A model generated the notes under the pieces. The model saw nothing but the letters and a program-made list of their open reading frames with translations, was not told the DNA's origin and did not search any database. The position numbers were made by a program, and so were the translations under genes. 64,000 bases of DNA from Candidatus Latescibacterota bacterium (GTDB lineage: Bacteria > Latescibacterota > UBA2968 > GCA-2709665): positions 1-64,000 of the forward strand of contig CAXXJS010000037.1 of NCBI GenBank assembly GCA_963662665.2, given 5' to 3'. Positions 6,148 to 57,077 of the stretch are shown here, one piece after another (the stretch's first letter is position 1; every line of letters begins with the position of its first letter).

Positions 6148-6903
6148 GTGCGCCGTGAAAAGGCGCGGAACTTCAGTGGGTGAGAGTCCCACCCGACAGA
6201 TGTTGCCACAGTCGGAAGCAATCGGAGCGGAGACGTAGGTAACGACATCTCCGAAGCCTCCGGTGTAGAGGGTCGCCAGGCGACTCGGCGAGTATGTGGG
6301 CTGAAACGTGAGTAAACGCTGAGCAGGCCTCGAAAAGGGTAATGCGGGAGCCGACCCGGCTTGCGAACGGGGAAGGCCGCCGTCGTTGGGGAAGCAGGCA
6401 ACGAGAGCACCCAACGGTCCCGCCGGGGTAATGGCGGAGGCACGCATACAAGGAGATCCGACGCAACACGGGAAGCCCCAGCGGTGGTGGAGAGCCACCA
6501 ACCGGAAGCCCGTGAGGGCCAGGCCGGGCCGTATGGGGTGGCGGACAGGCTCGTAGTACCTGTGATGCCGGGTAACGCCGGCGGAGGAAAGGGGCCTGAC
6601 TTCGGATGTGCTTGTGAAGGGGACAACTGTCGGGAGAGTGGCGCAAGCCTATAACCTCCTCCAGAATAAGACGAGGCGACTCCAGATCAAGCTAAGGTTT
6701 CAGGTGAAGCTGTCCGGGCAGATCGGGCAGTGTGTACCTGAAGGCGATGTCCGTCGGAGAGCCGGATGCGGTAACTCCGCACGTCCGGTTCGACGAGCGG
6801 GATGTGGAAACGGAGCACGGAGGGGCTATTGAGGCACCGCCAGACGAAAGGGGCGGGAACAGACAGGCCACTCCTAAACCACCGCGCCACATCTCGACTC
6901 TAC
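6148..6903 (+). mobile_element. Group II intron lacking an intact ORF (intron-encoded protein internally deleted)
   Basis: 5' GTGCG; domain III-like TAGTACC..GCCGGGTAACGCCGGCGGAGGAAAGGG; domain V GAGCCGGATGCGG..CCGCACGTCCGGTTC (6759-6791) with AGC triad; domain VI with bulged A6897; 3' end ..CTCTAC; EBS1 TTGCGAA (6361-6367) complements 5' exon TTCGCAA (6141-6147). Confidence 0.93.
6638..6750 (+). pseudogene. Remnant of intron-encoded reverse transcriptase/maturase in domain IV
   Basis: Short ..NKTRRLQIKL segment resembling IEP N-termini (KIRxLQRKL), followed almost directly by domain V; no RT core or YADD. Confidence 0.6.
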
Positions 6904-7081: not shown

Positions 7082-8275
<1,194 letters not shown>

Positions 8276-46574: not shown

Positions 46575-48932
46575 TCAGTTTACCGTAAAGGTGTTCTCGC
46601 TGGCGTACGTTCCCCTTTCACCGTCAATCGTTATCTCGGCGACCATCCGGTATTCCCCGGCGCTGGTTGTCGAGTAGGGGCACAGCCCCACGCGCAGCGT
46701 TCGTTCAATATCGGCCCATGAATCGCCCTCTCTACGTTGCCACTTCGACGTGTGTGTCGTGTACGCCGAACCCTCAATGGATATGCCAATCAGCGTGATG
46801 CATTGCTCGGTTGTGGATAGTGCCAGGAATTGAACCCCTCCGTCCGACACCAGAAGCCCGGCCAGCGGTTGAATTTCCACGGGCATGGTTGTGGCTTCCT
46901 CGCAGTTTTCTCCGGTGGTTCGGTCGATGCCCTCCAGCCACAACTGAAAGCCCTCGTCAAGAGGCGCGCACAGCCCGGTGGCGTGAAACTGGATATCTTC
47001 CATGCCGTTCAGATTGGTCAGGCTGAACGGCAGCGCGCCCTTCAGGTCCGCATTATCGTTGACCCACAACTGGGCGAGGTCGGACAGGTTTCCAATGGAT
47101 TCAGGCAGTTCGCCGCTCAACGTATTCTCGGACAGGTCCAGCCATACCAGGGTGGACAATCTGCCCAATTCCGAGGGAATCGGTCCGGTCAGCTTGTTGG
47201 CGGCGATCCAGGCCACTTCCAGGGAGGCCATATCGGCCAGCGAACCCGGTATCTCGCCGGTCAGTTCATTCTTGTCTAGTTCCAGCCACCTGAGTTCGTC
47301 GAGGGCGCCGAACTCGGACGGAATCTCGCCCGTCAGCTTATTTTCGTTAAGCCTGAGCACTTCAAGGACGGCAATATCGGCCAATGTGGGTGGAATGGCT
47401 CCGGACAGGTCGTTTTCGTTAAGGTAGAGCCGTTGGAGGTGGGGCAGGTTGCCAAGCGCCCCGGGAATCTCACCGGACAGTCTATTCGAGCTTAGCCAAA
47501 TCATATTCACGTTGGTCATGTCGCCCAGTTCGGCCGGTATGGCGCCGGACAGTTGGTTTTCCGAGATATCCAGAAATAACAGGTTCGTCAGCTTGCCAAA
47601 TTCCGCGGGTATCTCGCCACTCAACGCATTCTTCCAAATCCACAGGATCTTGAGATTGGACAGATTTCCCAGTTCGGCAGGCATCTCACCGCTCAACTCG
47701 TTTTCGTCGAAATTCAGCCAGCGCAGTTCAGAAAGGTCTCCAAGTTGCGCGGGTATGGTTCCGCTCAACTGGTTGGCGTTGAGCGCCAGCCATCTGAGAC
47801 TGGACAGGTTTCCCAGTTCGGCGGGTATCTCACCGCTCAACGCGTTCCGGTGCAGATAGAGCGCTTCATTACGGGTAAGACTCCCCAATTCATGTGGAAT
47901 GGGACCGGAAATGCCATTCCGTTGAAGGTAGAGCCGTCTGAGATGCGAAAGGCTGCCCAGTTCAGAGGGGATTTCACCGGTCAGATTGTTCTCGCTCAGG
48001 CTTACTACCGAAACGCGACCGTCGAATGTGATGACGCCATGCCACGTGGAAACGTGTTTGTCGGTCAGCCAGTTGGTCCGTTCATTCCAGCTGTCTCCAC
48101 CCGTCGACCTGTATAGCGCCACCAGGGCGTCACGTTCCGCTGGGTCCACAAGCGGGGCGGGCGGCGGGAGTTCCTTTCCGAACTGAGCGGCGAATTCGAG
48201 AAAATCGCCGAGACCGACCGTCCCGTCGCCATCCAGGTCGAACCGTCCGTCGAAGGAATCCTCCTCCCGCTGAGCGCCGAAATTGCTCGCGAGCAGCAGA
48301 AAGTCGGAAAATAAGACAGTACCGTCGCCGTCGAAGTCGGCACGGTGTACGTCAAGGCCGGGAGACGGGGCCGCCGTACTGTCCTGCAGGGAAAGATCGA
48401 CGTCGAACGACGCGGTTTTCTCCCGGTATCGCCCGAGTTGAATGTCACCCCGGGCCAAACGGATCGTTGTGCTCGAAAAAGACTCGGACGTTCGAAAACG
48501 TATGGTGCCCACAAGGCCGTCTCTGGGCGTGGTGCGGCTCGCAAACGGCCAGACCGAAACCTCCACGGACTTCGGATGCGTTTCTTCCTTCGTCGTCGCC
48601 ACGGCATGGGTCATGATTCCGCCAACGTCGAACCTGTCGAAGAGGACCTGCCGAGCGTCGTATTCGAAGCGCATGGACACGACGGTCGCCCCCTGGATGT
48701 CATCGCCGAAGACCTGTATGGAAACGACGTCCCCGGCGGAGACTTCAAGTGACGTCGCGCCCTGATCGCCCTCCGCGCCATCCAGATCGGGAGAAAGCGA
48801 AAACAGACTCTGGGAAGAAACCGGCTGCGGGCCAATCCACAGGGCAATGGAAATGGTGACAGAGATCAGCAGCGCCGCCCCGCGGAAGTATCGGGCGGAC
48901 CAAAGCGATGGAGGAGTTCTCGATTCAGGCAT
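46575..48932 (-). CDS. Secreted cohesin-like + dockerin-like + plant-type LRR protein
   Basis: Signal/TM segment; cohesin-like VSIQVF..MRFEYD..GTIRF; DFDGDGTVLFSDF / DLDGDGTVGLGDF; ERDALVALY..W cap; about 14 LxxLxLxxNxLSGxIPxxLG repeats. Confidence 0.88.
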   Translation of the reverse strand: MPESRTPPSLWSARYFRGAALLISVTISIALWIGPQPVSSQSLFSLSPDLDGAEGDQGATSLEVSAGDVVSIQVFGDDIQGATVVSMRFEYDARQVLFDRFDVGGIMTHAVATTKEETHPKSVEVSVWPFASRTTPRDGLVGTIRFRTSESFSSTTIRLARGDIQLGRYREKTASFDVDLSLQDSTAAPSPGLDVHRADFDGDGTVLFSDFLLLASNFGAQREEDSFDGRFDLDGDGTVGLGDFLEFAAQFGKELPPPAPLVDPAERDALVALYRSTGGDSWNERTNWLTDKHVSTWHGVITFDGRVSVVSLSENNLTGEIPSELGSLSHLRRLYLQRNGISGPIPHELGSLTRNEALYLHRNALSGEIPAELGNLSSLRWLALNANQLSGTIPAQLGDLSELRWLNFDENELSGEMPAELGNLSNLKILWIWKNALSGEIPAEFGKLTNLLFLDISENQLSGAIPAELGDMTNVNMIWLSSNRLSGEIPGALGNLPHLQRLYLNENDLSGAIPPTLADIAVLEVLRLNENKLTGEIPSEFGALDELRWLELDKNELTGEIPGSLADMASLEVAWIAANKLTGPIPSELGRLSTLVWLDLSENTLSGELPESIGNLSDLAQLWVNDNADLKGALPFSLTNLNGMEDIQFHATGLCAPLDEGFQLWLEGIDRTTGENCEEATTMPVEIQPLAGLLVSDGGVQFLALSTTEQCITLIGISIEGSAYTTHTSKWQRREGDSWADIERTLRVGLCPYSTTSAGEYRMVAEITIDGERGTYASENTFTVN
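47000..48014 (-). repeat. Diverged 72-bp tandem repeats encoding 24-aa LRRs
   Basis: 24-aa periodicity of the LSGEIP..LG motif. Confidence 0.8.
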
Positions 48933-49189
48933 CGGGTTCTTTCTCCCTATTTGGTGCAGGAGTTCTCATTTTCCAGATATTATAAAACATAATTAAATAC
49001 TCTGATTTCAACAAGGGTATCGCGGGTCGTATTTATGTATCCCAGGTTTGCGCATGTGCGGCGCACAATTGACGGCCGTCAGCCAACTTTAGGACAATAG
49101 AAGGCCGCTCCATCGTCGCATTCATCGCGGAGACCCACACGTCCCTTCGACTTCCAGCGGTCTCAGTATTCACTGCTTAGTCGAATTAT

Positions 49190-49230
49190 ACAACATAAAC
49201 GTTGACAACAGAATTGTTGTATGATATATT
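49190..49230 (+). promoter_or_regulatory. Sigma70 promoter with two overlapping palindromic operators
   Basis: TTGACA(49202)-N17-TATATT(49225) with extended TG; ACAACA-N4-TGTTGT (49205-49220) and ACAACA-N4-CGTTGA (49190-49205). Confidence 0.7.
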
Positions 49231-49262
49231 TGCCTCCTATTCATCAAAAAAGGAGCGTACTA

Positions 49263-50504
49263 ATGAACTCATCCACGGGCCGCTGGGTTTGCGGCGATGA
49301 CTTTTTCAACCGTGATCGTGAATTGAAGATTCTGGAAACACTGGTCCGAGACGGAAACCACGTGCTGTTGACCGGACAGCGGAGGATGGGAAAGACCAGT
49401 ATCGTCAGGGAACTCGGTCGCCTACTCGAAGCCGACGGTTGGATCTTTCTCTTTGCCGATGTTGAAGGAGCGGCATCTCCAGAGGATGCGATTACTGAGA
49501 TTGCGAGGGCCGTGCTCCCCGTTCGTCCGGTAGCTGCCCGTTTTGCCGTTGGAATGAAGCGTTTCTTGACTGAAAGCTTAGAGGAAATCAACGCGCTCGA
49601 ATTTGCCGTGAAAATCCGTGCAGGGCTGAACGCCGGCAATTGGAAGCATCATGGTGAGCAGATGTTTAGTGTATGCGCCGAGCAGGACAGGCCGGTGCTC
49701 CTGGTCGTCGACGAACTACCCATATTTCTCAAACGAATGCTCCAAGCCGACGGCAACGCACGTCGTGTGGACGAATTCCTGAGTTGGATGCGCGGAGAAT
49801 TACAGATTCTTGAAGAAGGCGCTCCAGTTCTCATTGTGTCCGGCAGTATCGGTCTCGAACCACTCGTGCGGAGGCTCGGAATACCCGACCGCATCAACCA
49901 TTTCTATCCGTATCGGCTCGCGCCATGGGACCGTGCAACAAGCGTGAAGTGCTTCAACCGCCTTGCGGAAAGTTACAAGTTACCCCTGGAGGACGGAGTG
50001 GCCGATGCAGTGTATACTGCACTCGGGATCGGCATCCCCCACCACGTTCAATCATTCTTCACGCGTCTGCGGGAATTCGCCACCATGCACGAACGTAAAA
50101 GGGTGACGGTGAAAGACGTGGACCAGGTCTATCATAACTCACTCCTGGGACCTTCCGGCCAAAGCGACCTCGTGCACTACGAGACGCGCCTCATGGATGT
50201 GCTGGAAGATGAGAGCTACTCTATTGCGATGGAGATTCTCGCCGAAGCGGCGGTTGAGGGAGTGTTCACACCAGACGCGTATAGCTGTCTTGGCCAAATG
50301 TATTCCAGGCTCGTAAATGATGCACCTGCACGCATCGCCGATGTTCTTGATGTCCTGGAACACGACGGGTATCTCAAAGGCAGTGCCGACGGCCACCGTT
50401 TTGAGTCGCGTGTGCTCAAGGACTGGTGGGCATCCCGATTCAGAGATCACCATATCCCGATCCTGCGCCGCGAAGACAAAAGAGATTCAAAGGAGGCAGT
50501 GTAA
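49263..50504 (+). CDS. STAND/AAA+-like P-loop ATPase (archaeal-ATPase-like)
   Basis: FFNRDRE, Walker A GQRRMGKT, Walker B LLVVDE, SGS sensor, GIPHHVQ (GxP motif); AGGAG SD. Confidence 0.85.
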   Translation: MNSSTGRWVCGDDFFNRDRELKILETLVRDGNHVLLTGQRRMGKTSIVRELGRLLEADGWIFLFADVEGAASPEDAITEIARAVLPVRPVAARFAVGMKRFLTESLEEINALEFAVKIRAGLNAGNWKHHGEQMFSVCAEQDRPVLLVVDELPIFLKRMLQADGNARRVDEFLSWMRGELQILEEGAPVLIVSGSIGLEPLVRRLGIPDRINHFYPYRLAPWDRATSVKCFNRLAESYKLPLEDGVADAVYTALGIGIPHHVQSFFTRLREFATMHERKRVTVKDVDQVYHNSLLGPSGQSDLVHYETRLMDVLEDESYSIAMEILAEAAVEGVFTPDAYSCLGQMYSRLVNDAPARIADVLDVLEHDGYLKGSADGHRFESRVLKDWWASRFRDHHIPILRREDKRDSKEAV

Positions 50505-53275
50505 TGACAGCTTCCAAACCATCGCCGCTGAGCCCCAATCGCAGGATAAGGAAGTTCAACCCCGGCACGCATCAATCTGACGAAGAGATTGTCGAGCAGT
50601 TTGTCGTTCGCAAACGCGAACTGGATGCCGTACTCGAGGTTCTCCGTGAAAACGTGAATTCACCCTCCTGCCAGCACATAATGATCGTTGGCCCTCGCGG
50701 TCGGGGAAAAACCATTCTCCTGGTTCGGGTCGCCGCGGAGTTGCGGACCGACAAGCAACTCTCAGAAAGCCTGTTTCCAGTCCGGTTCATGGAAGAGAGC
50801 CAGGAGATCTTCAATCTGGCCGACTTCTGGCTCGAGGCGCTGTTTCATCTCGCAAGGGAGACCGAGGAGCAGAATCCTGTCCTTTCGCGGAATCTGCGTG
50901 AAACGCATGGCGACCTTTCCTCGCGGTGGCGTGAACAGTCGCTCGAAGCGCTCGCCCGAGCCGCGGTTCTGGAAGCGGCGGACCGGCTGGACCGAAAACT
51001 CGTGCTTATGGTTGAGAACCTGCAATCGCTATGCGAAAACGTGGATGACAACTTCGGCTGGAAGCTTAGAGAGGCACTTCAGTCCGAACCTCAGGTCATG
51101 CTGCTTGCGTCCGCAACAAGTCGATTCGAGGGTCTTGACGACGTGGAGCAGCCCTTTTTCGAACTGTTTCGAAACATCAACTTGCAACCGCTGGACACAG
51201 ATGAGTGTCGCCGCCTGTGGCTGGTCGTGAGCGGAGATAAAGTGAGTTCGCGGGAGATCAGGCCGATCCAGATCCTGACCGGCGGAAACCCGCGCCTTCT
51301 GGTCATCGTCGCGGAGTTTGCGAGACACCGCTCCCTGCGCAGGCTGATGGAAGAACTGGTAACGCTGATCGACGAGCACACGGAGTATTTTCGCGGACAT
51401 CTGGAGGTCTTGGCGAAGACTGAGCGACGGGTGTACGTCTCGGTGATAGACCTCTGGAAGCCGTCGAGTCCCGGCGAAATCGCGGCGCGCGCTCGTACAG
51501 ACGTGCGCATCGTATCGACGATGCTGGGGAGATTGGTCGAGCGGGGGGCTGTCACCGTGGAAGGCCGGGGACGAAAGAGACTATATGCCCCCGCGGAACC
51601 TCTCTACAGCATCTATTACAAGCTGCGGCGCGAGCGCGATGCGGCGGCCGTCGTGGAGAATCTGATACACTTTATGGTGGCGTTCTACGACATTGGCGAG
51701 TTGGACGGAATTCGTGAACAGTTATATTCCGAGGCAATCGGTTCAGATATCATCCGCGCCGGATTAGACCGCGCGCTAGCGAAAATTCCACCTGCCAACG
51801 ACAGTTACACGAAAAAAAAGTGGGATTTCGTCAAAGACGCTGCGGTTAAGGTTGAAGTCTATCATCAAGGAGTGGCTGAAAGACGGCTTGACAAAGATAT
51901 CGAGGACGCGTTTCAGGTACATGCGTGGCAGAAAGTCATCGGAATCATCGATGAGGTGTTCACGTCCAGGAACATGGAATCTCGGAAATTGTCAGAAGCA
52001 TTCATTGCCCGAATTATGCATGCGAAGGCCTTTGCGTACGAGCAACTTCGAGATTTTCACGCGGTGATCACAGCGTGCGACGAGCTGGTCAAGCGCTTTG
52101 GCGAAAGCAGTAAGCCGGAAACTCAGACGAGGGTCGCTGCTGCGTTGTTGGATAAGGGCAGAGCGAAACAACAGATGAATGATCTGGAGGGAGCCACGTC
52201 AATCTACGATGAGGTCGTTGAGCGCGGTAGGGAAGGCGACATATCAAGTCTTCTGTGGTTGGCCGTCGCTGCATTACATTACACGGGAGAAGCCAGAAGG
52301 GAACAGGGTGATCTGAGGGGAGCCATTGTGGCGTTCGACGAAGTGGTCGAACTCTATAGCGAAAACAAACCACCAGATCTTCAGTTCTGGGTTGCAGCGT
52401 CGTTGGTTCGCAAAGCAGAAGCATTCAAGGAACAGGGCGATTTTGAGGAGGCCCTTTCGTTATGCGAGGAAGCAGTCAGGCGATTTGGCGAAAGCGTCGC
52501 GCCGGATGTTCAAAGCTGGATTGCCGGGGCACTGATCGATAAGGGAAGATTGAGAAAGGATCAGGGCCATCTGGAGAAAGCCCTTGTAAACTTCCAGGAT
52601 GTGGTCGAGCGTTACGGCGACGACGATGAGCCTGAACTCCGGAGGTATGTCGCTGGGGCGTTGATCGACATTGGAAGAACGAAAGAGGAACTGGGTGATC
52701 TTGTAGGAGCTATGGCATCATGGGATGAGATGGTCTCGCGCTATGGCAATAGCGACGAGACCATTGTTCAAAGGCTTGTCACCGGTGCGTTGCTGGAAAA
52801 GGGCCGATGTCAGTCCGAAATGGGACATGCAGATGAAGCGCTACTGTTGTGTAAGGACCTCGAAAAAAGGGTTCGTGCTCTGGCCGGAAATGGAAATTGC
52901 CAATTCGCGTGGCAGATTTTGTGTATACGAACTCTGGCGCTGGCGGTCCGAGATGAGAATGTAGCTGCTATGAATGTGTTTTGCTCGGTGTATGCCTCAT
53001 TGCCTTCTGACAGCGAAGTTGGAATGAACTGGATGATAAGGCTCGTGCCCAACCTGCTCGCAGCCGGGGCCTCAGAACAGGAGCTCGTTGCAGTTCTTCT
53101 GACCGATCCCTCGAAATCCAGTACGCTGGCGCCTCTTGTCGTCGCGCTTCGCGAACGGCAGGGCGAGAGGGTTTATGCACCAGCGGAGGTTCGCGAGGTC
53201 GCTGCGGATGTGCGCAAGCTAATCGTCGACCGTGTGAAGAGTCGGGCGAATGCGACAGCAGATTCTCCGGCTTGA
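50504..53275 (+). CDS. STAND-like NTPase + winged HTH + 43-aa TPR-like repeats
   Basis: FVVRKRE, Walker A GPRGRGKT, variant Walker B LMVEN, TGGNPR, EIAARAR..VSTMLGRLVERG wHTH, about 7 repeats of 43 aa; GGAGG and TAATG overlap with the upstream gene. Confidence 0.85.
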   Translation: MTASKPSPLSPNRRIRKFNPGTHQSDEEIVEQFVVRKRELDAVLEVLRENVNSPSCQHIMIVGPRGRGKTILLVRVAAELRTDKQLSESLFPVRFMEESQEIFNLADFWLEALFHLARETEEQNPVLSRNLRETHGDLSSRWREQSLEALARAAVLEAADRLDRKLVLMVENLQSLCENVDDNFGWKLREALQSEPQVMLLASATSRFEGLDDVEQPFFELFRNINLQPLDTDECRRLWLVVSGDKVSSREIRPIQILTGGNPRLLVIVAEFARHRSLRRLMEELVTLIDEHTEYFRGHLEVLAKTERRVYVSVIDLWKPSSPGEIAARARTDVRIVSTMLGRLVERGAVTVEGRGRKRLYAPAEPLYSIYYKLRRERDAAAVVENLIHFMVAFYDIGELDGIREQLYSEAIGSDIIRAGLDRALAKIPPANDSYTKKKWDFVKDAAVKVEVYHQGVAERRLDKDIEDAFQVHAWQKVIGIIDEVFTSRNMESRKLSEAFIARIMHAKAFAYEQLRDFHAVITACDELVKRFGESSKPETQTRVAAALLDKGRAKQQMNDLEGATSIYDEVVERGREGDISSLLWLAVAALHYTGEARREQGDLRGAIVAFDEVVELYSENKPPDLQFWVAASLVRKAEAFKEQGDFEEALSLCEEAVRRFGESVAPDVQSWIAGALIDKGRLRKDQGHLEKALVNFQDVVERYGDDDEPELRRYVAGALIDIGRTKEELGDLVGAMASWDEMVSRYGNSDETIVQRLVTGALLEKGRCQSEMGHADEALLLCKDLEKRVRALAGNGNCQFAWQILCIRTLALAVRDENVAAMNVFCSVYASLPSDSEVGMNWMIRLVPNLLAAGASEQELVAVLLTDPSKSSTLAPLVVALRERQGERVYAPAEVREVAADVRKLIVDRVKSRANATADSPA

Positions 53276-53324
53276 GCAACTTCAGCACGGGCAACTGATT
53301 TCGGTTTGTCTACGCCCAATGGGG

Positions 53325-53353
53325 TTGACAGTTGTGGATTTATGCAATAGATT
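53325..53353 (+). promoter_or_regulatory. Putative sigma70 promoter
   Basis: TTGACA-N17-TAGATT about 290 nt upstream of the 53643 gene. Confidence 0.45.
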
Positions 53354-53573
53354 TCGGATATGAATATCCGTTGTGACGCGAAGCGAGGCATTCGAAGTGG
53401 ATTATTCACGAAAGCCAGTGCTTTTTGTTGAATAATTGGCTGTTTTTCGACAATGAACCGGCAGTTCTTGCAGCTGTGGGATCGAGTTGGTCGTCGCTGT
53501 GTCGCGCGGTAAATGGTCGAAGGTTCATTGCCGTCGTTCATATCCGGGAGCACTATTCCCGCATTTGGTCTTT

Positions 53574-55747: not shown

Positions 55748-56497
55748 GTGACGACAATCGAAAAGGCGCGAGAAGCCATAGAACAGAGCGACATCGGGAG
55801 GCTGGAGGGTTTAATCACATCCTTTCCCGATCTGCCCAATCTCAGATCGGGAGACAACGATCGCACGCTTCTGCATACCATCGCAGATTACCCCGGGCAC
55901 AAACCGAAGGGCGTGGAAATGGCCAGACTGGTCATCGACGCGGGAGGCGACGTTAACGGGCGTTTTCAACACGGGGAGGTTGAATCGGTAAAGGAGACGC
56001 CATTGCACTGGGCAGCCAGCAACGATGACGTCGATCTGGCGGACCTCCTGCTCGACGCTGACGCGGACATAGATATCGATTGCGGCGTCATCGCGAATGG
56101 GACGCCGATATGGAATGCCGTTATTTTTCGATGTGTGAACGCCGCACGGCTGTTGATCGACCGTGGCGCGGCATCGAACCTCATGACGGCCGCCGGCGCA
56201 GGGCGACGGGACCTCGTGGATCGGTTCTTTGACGACGACGGAAACGTGACGGAAAACGCCGGGGCCCTGCCATGCTGGGATGAACCGAGGCCGCCGCAGA
56301 CGGCCCTGGACAGCGCTTTCGGCCTGGCGTGTCGAAACGGCCATACGACGATCGCCAAAATTCTTTACGAACGGGGCGCCGATCCGGATTGGGTCAACCC
56401 GGCCGGCGAATCCGCGTTTCTTCAGGCACGGAGAGGCAATCACAGGATCGTCATGGACTGGATGAAGGCGCGCGGCCTCGCACCGGATGACGCTTGA
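55748..56497 (+). CDS. Ankyrin repeat protein
   Basis: RTLLH, ETPLHWAAS, GTPIWNA, LACRNGH; GGAGG SD. Confidence 0.85.
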   Translation: MTTIEKAREAIEQSDIGRLEGLITSFPDLPNLRSGDNDRTLLHTIADYPGHKPKGVEMARLVIDAGGDVNGRFQHGEVESVKETPLHWAASNDDVDLADLLLDADADIDIDCGVIANGTPIWNAVIFRCVNAARLLIDRGAASNLMTAAGAGRRDLVDRFFDDDGNVTENAGALPCWDEPRPPQTALDSAFGLACRNGHTTIAKILYERGADPDWVNPAGESAFLQARRGNHRIVMDWMKARGLAPDDA

Positions 56498-57077
56498 CGT
56501 GAATCCGGACGCATCTTCTCTCGTAATTCTGGGTAGTGAATCGCAGGGCGGGTCGTATATATTGAGGATTCGCCTGGCGGAGCCTACCCCGCTCTCGTTC
56601 GGCGGATTCAAGCGCGGAAAGATCATATCGCTGCCTGCGGGAGAGTACGTCTACGTCGGGTCGGCGACGTCGAAGAAAGGCGCCGCGTCGCTGGCCAACC
56701 GCCTGGTCCGCCATGCCACCCGAAGCGGCAGGAAGGAACCTCACGGAATCCGGTGCGAATTACTCCGGCGATTCAACCCCATCGGTCTGGGAAACGAAAA
56801 CCTCGAGCCAGCAACCCAAAAGAACCTGCACTGGAATATCGACTATCTGCTGGACCTGCCGGCTGCCGAGCTGACCGGCGCCTGCATCCTTCGAACTCCG
56901 GAGTATCTCGAAGAACGTCTGGGTAAATTCCTGGAGCGCGATCCCCAAACCATCGTTGTTGAAAAAGGCCTGGGCGCAAACGATGCGCCCGGCAACACCC
57001 ACGTTCTACGCCTCGCGGCCGGAGAGGCGTGGTGGACGTCCCTTCCTGAACGGCTCAGAGGCCATTTTAGCATTTAA
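56487..57077 (+). CDS. DUF123 / Uri (GIY-YIG) superfamily endonuclease-like
   Basis: GSYIL, G.YVYVGSA, RL.RH, HWNIDYL. Confidence 0.8.
   Translation: MTLDVNPDASSLVILGSESQGGSYILRIRLAEPTPLSFGGFKRGKIISLPAGEYVYVGSATSKKGAASLANRLVRHATRSGRKEPHGIRCELLRRFNPIGLGNENLEPATQKNLHWNIDYLLDLPAAELTGACILRTPEYLEERLGKFLERDPQTIVVEKGLGANDAPGNTHVLRLAAGEAWWTSLPERLRGHFSI

Follow-up and report, generated by a model that had tools for sequence, protein, structure and literature searches.

The DNA analyzed here is a 64,000-nt stretch of contig CAXXJS010000037.1 (hereafter the window; coordinates are those of its forward strand unless another locus is named), and the element in question is a pair of tandem genes at positions 49263-53275. 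An earlier note, made from the sequence alone, had proposed that these genes form a translationally coupled pair of STAND (signal transduction ATPases with numerous domains)-like proteins and a candidate undescribed conflict or defense system. Gene 1 (49263..50504, +), running from the ATG at 49263 to the TAA at 50502-50504, encodes a 413-aa AAA+ ATPase of the Arch_ATPase/Orc1-Cdc6-like kind, the C-terminal domain of which is a winged helix. Gene 2 (50504..53275, +) encodes a 923-aa protein built of a STAND-like nucleoside triphosphatase (NTPase) module, a winged helix, an array of tetratricopeptide repeats (TPR) and a helical C-terminus.

The stop codon of gene 1 overlaps the start codon of gene 2 in the sequence TAATG, which follows a strong Shine-Dalgarno sequence, AAGGAGG, at 50490-50496 (the whole coupling junction occupying 50490..50506, +). 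Gene 1 has a Shine-Dalgarno sequence of its own, AAGGAG (49250..49255, +), 7 nt upstream of its ATG, and is preceded by a sigma-70-like promoter of the cassette, TTGACA-17 nt-TATATT (49202..49230, +), with TG before the -10 element and 11/12 matches. The number of -10/-35-type sites in this region (4, as compared with 2.8 +/- 1.8 in shuffled sequences) is unexceptional; this site is the best of the four and is correctly placed for the cassette. The G+C content of third codon positions (GC3) amounts to 0.60 in gene 1 and 0.61 in gene 2, versus 0.67-0.74 in 12 of the 14 other genes measured, the remaining two having 0.62 and 0.58. The flanking genes, coding for PolA, a Cache protein, a leucine-rich-repeat (LRR) protein (minus strand), an FlgD_ig protein, the product of an unknown open reading frame (ORF), an ankyrin protein and a DUF123 protein, are unrelated to the pair. 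The overlap with its strong ribosome-binding sequence, the separate promoter (seen here as a promoter-like element), the weaker GC3 bias and the lack of relationship with the surrounding genes had all been noticed before, and each was found again in our analysis.

Longer reading frames, starting from ATG 49221 for gene 1 and from GTG 50426 for gene 2, were considered and rejected, because the starts of homologues and the positions of the Shine-Dalgarno sequences favor 49263 and 50504. Among 20 aligned gene 1 homologues, 19 begin at the residue equivalent to 49263, and the one from the locus designated L014 is aligned from residue 4.

Properties of the two proteins

The gene 1 product contains the Walker A motif GQRRMGKTS (aa 38-46; 49374..49400, +), of which G38, Q39, R40, R41, M42, K44, T45 and S46 are invariant in 21 sequences, the canonical Walker B motif LLVVDE (aa 146-151; 49698..49715, +), and a GxP-like motif, GIGIPHH. 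It matches Pfam AAA_16 (PF13191) at 37.3 bits, above the gathering cut-off of 32.6, and ATPase_2/Arch_ATPase (PF01637) at 27.5 bits, under the cut-off of 33.2; a precomputed PF01637 match is present in many homologues of the pair's proteins. The archaeal Walker-type ATPases 2qen and 2fna rank first in the comparison of sequence profiles, and they are also the top fold matches of the alignment-based model (mean predicted local distance difference test score, pLDDT, 74.0), followed by Orc1/Cdc6, TnsC and RuvB. In the ESM Atlas, the protein met generic ATP-binding, AAA_22, AAA_16 and AAA_35 clusters only. The family is large, with 558, 1744 and 3536 representative clusters at E <= 1e-30, 1e-10 and 1e-3, respectively. 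Apart from an AAA+ base, a lid and a winged helix, the protein has no further parts. Its earlier description as a stand-alone ATPase with canonical Walker A and B motifs, a GxP-like motif and neither sensor nor effector can thus be retained, but the attribute STAND-like cannot: for gene 1, the term Arch_ATPase/Orc1-Cdc6-like AAA+ protein with a winged helix is more apt than that of a typical STAND.

In the gene 2 product, the NTPase module includes the Walker A motif GPRGRGKT (aa 63-70; 50690..50713, +), which is invariant among the homologues aligned, a variant Walker B motif, LVLMVEN (aa 166-172; 50999..51019, +), in which Asn replaces the catalytic Glu, and GGNPR (51281..51295, +; TGGNPR at aa 259-264), the GxP-type motif of the helical lid, with T259, G260, G261, P263 and R264 invariant even when distant homologues are included. 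The module has over 3000 homologue matches. AAA_16 was matched at 40.3 bits (cut-off 32.6), and TPR families were also above cut-off, while PF01637 (30.6 bits; cut-off 33.2) and the curated STAND models nSTAND5 (24.5 bits; cut-off 34) and NACHT (17.4 bits; cut-off 26.7) stayed below; in a distant homologue, L030, nSTAND1 reached 37.4 bits at a cut-off of 27.1. The winged-helix domain (about aa 301-400; 51404..51703, +) was recognized by the helix-strand pattern of the model and by sub-cut-off profile matches, namely of TrmB and Penicillinase_R at aa 304-366, together with a match to the MarR structure 2fa5 (E 7e-4); MarR_2 or TrmB matches occur in 6 of the 10 distant homologues scanned.

The array of about seven to eight 43-aa TPR-like repeats (about aa 498-832; 51995..52999, +), the presumed sensor, is visible both in the self-similarity of the sequence, which peaks at lags of 43 (1.08) and 86 residues (0.93), and in the structural model, where helix pairs start 43 residues apart at 538, 581, 624, 667, 710 and 753, and then at 798, which gives about seven repeats. 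Behind it lies a helical region of no known family (53000..53272, +) with the conserved motif AGASE ... PLIVALR.R.GE.VRAP.EV.EVA, for which nothing above 0.85 was found in the ESM Atlas. In the model (pLDDT 83.5), a lid and a winged helix can be seen after the P-loop core; the best Foldseek match is the TPR-STAND 6mfv (E 1.3e-9) and the second is Avs3 (8dgc), with 2qen, 2fna (template modeling score 0.66), Orc1, Apaf-1 and CED-4 as further fold matches of the NTPase module. Gene 2 therefore has the features of a STAND protein: the P-loop core, the lid with GxP, the winged helix and the C-terminal repeat array. The motifs, the number and length of the repeats, the helical C-terminus and the order of modules are those that the earlier note had read from the letters.

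The NTPase modules of the two proteins are only remotely alike. In BLASTP, the P-loop region alone could be aligned (E 0.024), and on this basis the idea that gene 1 and gene 2 are recent duplicates was rejected.

A marked difference between the two proteins concerns the Walker B motif. The second acidic residue of this motif in P-loop/AAA+ enzymes activates water for hydrolysis. The hhhhDE motif of gene 1 keeps D150 and E151 in all 21 close sequences, and the D-E pair is present in 10 of 10 sequences of a set that includes distant homologues. At the equivalent place in gene 2, E171 and N172 are invariant (23/23), N172 also in 10 of 10 homologues at 25-45% identity, so that across the family this motif has the form (E/D)-N, an acidic residue followed by Asn. 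Because Asn stands where the catalytic Glu would be, gene 2 is expected, judging from its sequence, to bind nucleotide yet to hydrolyze it poorly, whereas gene 1 should be active. The proposal of a sensor/helper arrangement of two NTPases, made before on the basis of a single locus, gains support from this family-wide asymmetry between D-E and (E/D)-N.

The modules of gene 2 differ strongly in the degree of conservation. Relative to the window protein, homologues show 59-85% identity in the NTPase and 51-89% in the winged helix, as opposed to 16-52% in the linker and TPR part and 22-70% in the C-terminal region. Proteins that are 71-94% identical over the first 430 residues vary in length from 515 to 1267 aa, and the gap totals in the TPR part are mostly near multiples of 43 aa (43, 86-87 and 90-91, and also 201 and 247). 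Even the type of repeat changes among distant members, which have TPR_12/TPR_10 (of the NPHP3 kind), classic TPR_1/TPR_17 or no TPR; a TPR_MalT match was also noted in distant homologues. Such a pattern is what would be expected if the TPR array were a fast-evolving sensor, as we presume.

Conservation of the pair

Loci with close homologues (L001-L023, gene 1 at 47-78% identity) were found in a scan of one genome per species; together with nine distant loci from the window's phylum and two located on plasmids they make up a set of 34. A gene 2 homologue directly follows gene 1 in 22 of the 23 close loci, and the exception, L015, stops at a contig end. In two of those 22 gene 1 is broken, being in two pieces in L022 and reduced to residues 1-107 in L023. 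The pair is kept in all nine distant loci of the window's phylum, at 25-45% identity of gene 1. Among 72,556 plasmid records, a gene 1 relative (24% identity) was found in two, both with an overlapping partner gene: in pCF003-70 of Clostridium estertheticum the partner is a 943-aa TPR protein (hhalign probability 99.9, E 2e-34) that keeps VENL, and in the plasmid of Segatella copri DSM 18205 it is a 298-aa protein without TPRs (probability 97.8). Overall, gene 2 stands right after gene 1 in 33 of the 34 loci, down to 24% identity, and the co-conservation on which the earlier proposal depended is thus confirmed.

At the 21 junctions compared, the genes overlap in 13 cases and are spaced by 5-17 nt in 8. 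Clustering of all flanking ORFs revealed no third conserved gene, the next most widespread clusters being present in 4 of 24 sources. Prediction of a complex between gene 1 and residues 1-430 of gene 2 gave a score of 0.27 (mark 0.32), a value that carries no weight either way.

Some loci depart from the simple two-gene layout. Two tandem gene 2 paralogues stand behind one gene 1 in L009 (9242-14401); in L023 (8307-13276), gene 1 is truncated and gene 2 is present both as a short and as a full copy; and in L021 (11852-14830) there is a second, decayed pair, inverted on the other strand.

Distribution of the cassette

At E <= 1e-20, matches were obtained in 43 of the 168 genomes of the window's phylum. 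Broken down by family, the fractions are 11/21, 10/31, 1/3 and 20/76 in the four families with matches, and 0/36 in ten other families taken together. The presence of the pair varies even within the window's genus, where 9 of the 14 other genomes match, seven over the full length (72-78% identity) and two as remnants limited to the first 57-58 residues. The five same-genus genomes without a match have PolA 89-92% identical to that of the window. In four of these five, the gene order of the window is kept from polA to citrate synthase and the LRR-FlgD_ig spacing is 0.46-0.70 kb, versus 4.7 kb in the window. Homology to the window ends at 48932/48946 in these empty sites and restarts at 53296-53310, so that the accessory cassette spans approximately 48947..53295 (no strand assigned) relative to them. 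The LRR and ankyrin neighbors stay in place in same-genus genomes devoid of the cassette. What is left of the cassette in the fifth genome (L036, 2330-2816) is a stretch resembling the promoter of gene 1, followed by the last 111 residues of gene 2 (84% identity); gene 1, the remainder of gene 2 and both the LRR and the FlgD_ig genes have been lost. In L002 and L003, the pair lies elsewhere in the same neighborhood, between polA and the Cache gene.

In the maximum-likelihood tree of gene 1, phylum labels change 9 times (the minimum being 5 and the mean of shuffled labels 10.4; as few changes occurred in 20 of 200 shuffles), and total path lengths between rows of different phylum labels are short. 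An even sample of 400 further genomes from the phylum of L005 contained 3 with a match, distant in each case. Taken together with the empty sites, these data make it likely that the cassette is horizontally transferred. This conclusion, drawn from sequence comparison, falls short of proof because the taxon labels are titles of metagenome-assembled genomes (MAGs), and bins can be wrong.

No tRNA gene was found in the window, and no meaningful flanking repeats were detected around its cassette. A 42-nt similarity between 49180-49221 and 53318-53359 was considered as a border repeat and rejected, as it reflects two different promoter-like elements that share GTTGACA and spacing only. The second of these, TTGACA-17-TAGATT (53325-53353, +), precedes the FlgD_ig gene and is kept in the empty sites of the four relatives. 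The records holding the 23 close loci are without exception uncultured or MAG records, with many different phylum labels and, in one case, the title Candidatus Poriferihabitaceae. This title, and the LRR and ankyrin neighbors in the window, we take to be a hint of host-associated, presumably sponge-type, consortia.

Genomic neighborhoods

The surroundings of the 23 close loci were scanned for defense families in 118 ORFs lying within three genes of the pair; the matches reported below are single hidden Markov model (HMM) matches and not called systems. Strong matches stand beside the pair in 6 of the 23 loci. The syntenic loci L002 (1783-7576) and L003 (1757-7565) have a 1785-1790-aa protein with Mrr_cat_2 and ResIII domains, matching the type IIG restriction enzyme-methyltransferase of PADLOC (E 1e-86). 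Neighbors in the other loci are a methyltransferase-HNH protein in L005; a type IV restriction endonuclease (1e-63), the DRT reverse transcriptase RT_UG21 (2e-118) and PDC-S26 in L008; a truncated HmaA (1.5e-235) beside a group II intron reverse transcriptase and a serine recombinase in L013; and PDC-M24B (1.5e-97) and PDC-S39 (4e-110) in L020. Beyond this set, a complete Septu system (PtuA 8e-115, PtuB 8e-35) immediately follows a distant pair (L026, 9808-11582), and the Segatella plasmid has WYL, DUF262 and IetA-like genes in the vicinity of the pair. Toxin-antitoxin-type domains (MazE, PIN, ParE) adjoin L009, L017 and L022.

The occurrence of 5 independent loci among 22 corresponds to binomial P values of 2e-5, 0.004 and 0.06 at assumed baselines of 1.5, 5 and 10%, respectively, the lowest being the baseline given in the accessible part of PMC13581612; these P values are only indicative, because the count used single HMM matches instead of called systems. 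Matches of PolA, adenosine deaminase, SpoT, RecG and a sigma-54 activator were discounted as housekeeping look-alikes, those in L022 were discounted as weak, and the reverse transcriptase in L012 was discounted as well.

A DUF7689 gene is also present directly upstream of the pair in L002 and L003, and may belong to the type IIG restriction system. In L009, a small divergent ORF with a MazE/AbrB-like domain (Pfam; about 7508-7735, -) lies upstream of gene 1. It falls into one cluster (c6) with the ORFs that occupy the equivalent position in L010 and L023, of which the L010 one has no Pfam match; in the other loci it is not conserved.

Discussion

STAND/NLR-type (nucleotide-binding leucine-rich-repeat) receptors have a key part in immunity throughout the domains of life, and in the bacterial examples known to us the sensor and the effector are fused in one protein. 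The pair described here differs in that a canonical ORC-like ATPase is encoded beside a TPR-STAND protein lacking the catalytic Glu, with no recognizable effector, in an arrangement that is widespread and strictly coupled. The explanation we favor, tentatively and with slightly less than even confidence, is that the two genes constitute a self-contained, horizontally exchanged sensor/helper two-NTPase switch of the STAND/ORC-Cdc6 kind, most likely serving as a conflict (anti-phage or anti-mobile-element) system.

The mutual binding of the two proteins, the trigger, the defense role and the output of the pair are all what we infer from the features described above. In the mechanism we propose, gene 2 would act as the sensor: the trigger, which is probably a foreign protein, would be bound by the hypervariable 43-aa TPR array, and nucleotide would be bound, but poorly hydrolyzed, by the NTPase module. 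Gene 1, produced in a fixed proportion to gene 2 owing to translational coupling, might then act as a catalytically competent helper or executor, recruited or activated by nucleotide-bound gene 2 and joining it in a common assembly by way of the AAA+-type modules. As the source of the output we envisage this ATPase/winged-helix assembly itself or the conserved C-terminal region of gene 2, rather than a nuclease, TIR or protease domain of the classical kind. In a more specific version of this mechanism, which we regard as rather doubtful, a hydrolysis-dead TPR-STAND receptor would recognize a foreign protein and recruit the Orc1/Cdc6-like AAA+ protein as the effector, for instance by its loading on DNA, or by remodeling or blocking a replication or transcription complex. 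The pair would then be a bacterial counterpart of sensor/helper NLR pairs, and one would deal with a class of immune NTPase systems free of effector domains and moving between phyla as a 4-kb cassette.

A number of observations weigh against a role in conflict. No effector-type domain was found in either protein in the Pfam, NCBIfam and PADLOC scans, in agreement with the earlier statement that no nuclease or TIR effector can be recognized. Searches against PADLOC gave weak P-loop matches only (mad8, E 3.5e-4, 18 bits, partial; PDC-S01, E 0.0076), and nothing in NCBIfam was above cut-off for either protein; the pair thus fits no family of these two collections, as would be required of an undescribed system. 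The defense-island association that the earlier note had envisaged holds for part of the loci, namely the six mentioned above and the distant one with Septu, but there is no credible defense gene among the window's own neighbors, 17 of the 23 loci have no strong PADLOC match within three genes, and some loci occupy housekeeping sites (adenosine deaminase, guanylate kinase and SpoT; RND efflux; polA). The association elsewhere is therefore suggestive, and its strength depends on the baseline assumed. Gene 1, with a mean column identity of 68% across phylum labels, is unusually conserved for a defense gene. The cassette is rare on plasmids (the 2 records of 72,556), and among viral contigs 26 pattern matches yielded no confirmed case; the reservation about MAG-derived labels, made above with respect to transfer, applies here as well. 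Finally, according to the accessible part of PMC13581612, 391 of 589 STAND clades are not classified as defense-associated.

Several of these points would be accounted for if the pair were a non-immune signaling or regulatory one, in which the TPRs of gene 2 sense an endogenous or environmental ligand, and both proteins control transcription, replication or chromosome handling via their winged helices, like MalT-type STANDs or Orc1/Cdc6. The presence of winged helices in both proteins, with MarR/TrmB-like matches, and of DNA-binding Orc1/Cdc6 among the nearest solved folds is consistent with such a function, and so are the lack of an effector domain, the location of many loci among housekeeping genes, the high conservation of the gene 1 core and the large share of STAND clades outside the defense-associated class (PMC13581612, as far as accessible). 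Evidence against such a function is that among members of one genus the cassette may be present, missing (empty sites) or reduced to decayed remnants; that it has no conserved target gene in its neighborhood and no LuxR-type or other dedicated output HTH (helix-turn-helix); that its sensor array varies by indels of whole repeat units and even by TPR type; that its gene tree departs from phylum labels; and that some copies reside among restriction, DRT and Septu genes. We consider a regulatory function unlikely on balance, though it is a serious competitor of the conflict system.

The patchy distribution, consistent with horizontal transfer, and the presence or absence of the cassette at one site could also result from its being a selfish module of the maintenance (addiction) type, or a factor assisting a mobile element, such as a TnsC-like AAA+ regulator with an adaptor, without a function in host defense. 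Recombinase, group II intron reverse transcriptase or insertion sequence (IS) elements indeed occur near L013, L012, L034 and L035, and the fold matches of gene 1 include TnsC. The TnsC match, however, is no better than other AAA+ matches of this protein, the pair has no transposase or integrase as a conserved companion, neither flanking repeats nor a tRNA gene could be found in the window, and the cassette was not found on viral contigs, with a distant homologue on 2 of 72,556 plasmids; we consider such a role improbable. Still less probable is a host-association factor of symbionts, a 'eukaryotic-like' TPR protein with a chaperone-like ATPase acting on host or symbiont proteins, since the location of the window cassette between LRR and FlgD_ig/ankyrin proteins, the origin of all 23 close loci from uncultured or MAG records (one of Candidatus Poriferihabitaceae) and the frequency in the window's phylum (43/168, versus 3/400 in the broad sample of another one) are countered by the prediction that both NTPases are cytoplasmic, the Pfam scan having shown no domain connected with secretion, by the distant pairs on plasmids of C. 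estertheticum and S. copri, and by the persistence of the LRR and ankyrin neighbors in genomes without the cassette.

Returning to the sensor/helper switch, its parts resemble several known systems, from each of which the pair differs in essential points. The modules of gene 2 (NTPase, GxP lid, winged helix, TPR) are ordered as in 6mfv, a TPR-sensor STAND of Pyrococcus horikoshii, and as in MalT-type STANDs; unlike these proteins, gene 2 is paired with a separate upstream AAA+ ATPase, has the (E/D)-N Walker B motif and lacks a LuxR-type output. As no LuxR-type HTH domain was found by Pfam in gene 1 either, the pair does not qualify as a MalT/LAL-type regulator. The Arch_ATPases (2qen, 2fna; PF01637) and Orc1/Cdc6 are the nearest solved relatives of gene 1 and of the gene 2 NTPase module, sharing with both window proteins the AAA+ base, the lid and the winged helix, although the window proteins are below the PF01637 cut-off and have no origin or replication context. 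To our knowledge, no function is known for 2qen and 2fna. In paired plant NLRs, the sensor, which has a variable recognition part, tolerates degenerate nucleotide motifs, whereas the helper keeps canonical motifs and executes the response. A similar division of work between two NOD-type (nucleotide-binding oligomerization domain) NTPases is proposed here, but this is a functional analogy only: homology does not extend past the level of the superfamily, the two bacterial genes are read in the same direction with coupled translation, and the helper has no known executioner domain. Septu (PtuA/PtuB), which adjoins one distant copy, is likewise a compact two-gene cassette with an ATPase; in our pair, both genes code for NTPases, no nuclease partner is present, and there is no PADLOC match to PtuA.

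With Avs proteins (Avs3, 8dgc, and the families in the accessible part of PMC13581612), gene 2 shares a STAND-like NTPase joined to a large, fast-diversifying, TPR-like C-terminal sensor, and the cassette is similarly accessory, with some copies in defense neighborhoods. The pair nevertheless consists of two genes, carries no N-terminal (fused) or other effector domain and matches no known Avs model in PADLOC, and we do not assign it to Avs. Nor do we assign it to MADS, since the mad8 match is weak and partial and no MADS genes were found among the neighbors scanned. The nearest described logic to that of a predicted inactive STAND with an active AAA+ partner is the iSTAND-MoxR-vWA ternary system, a predicted conflict system in which, as stated in the accessible part of the work of Kaur et al. 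(2020, PMC7159879), a catalytically impaired STAND is located beside a separate active AAA+ protein. In contrast to that system, the partner of gene 2 is not MoxR, and there is neither a vWA gene nor a conserved third component; no MoxR or vWA domain occurs in the 118 neighboring ORFs of the 23 loci. The pair is not described in the literature searched, including the accessible parts of PMC13581612, PMC7159879 and PMC13069673, while gene 2 may possibly be among the 589 STAND clades in the supplements of PMC13581612.

If the pair is immune, a sensor/helper division of labor between NTPases would exist also in bacteria, and an output mechanism that has not been catalogued would be indicated. This hypothesis is directly testable, because members of the family are located on plasmids of the cultured bacteria C. 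estertheticum and S. copri.

Other features of the region

The cassette is flanked by genes for a 785-aa LRR protein (46575-48932, -) and a 249-aa ankyrin-repeat protein (55748-56497, +), the end of the latter being overlapped by the DUF123 gene (56487-57077, +). In the Clostridium plasmid copy, a gene annotated as a GIY-YIG nuclease stands two genes downstream of the pair, and the parallel to DUF123 in the window is probably a coincidence. The single Rfam match of the window is a group II intron domain, D1-D4-4, at 6174-6311 (+), with 89.7 bits and E 2e-18.

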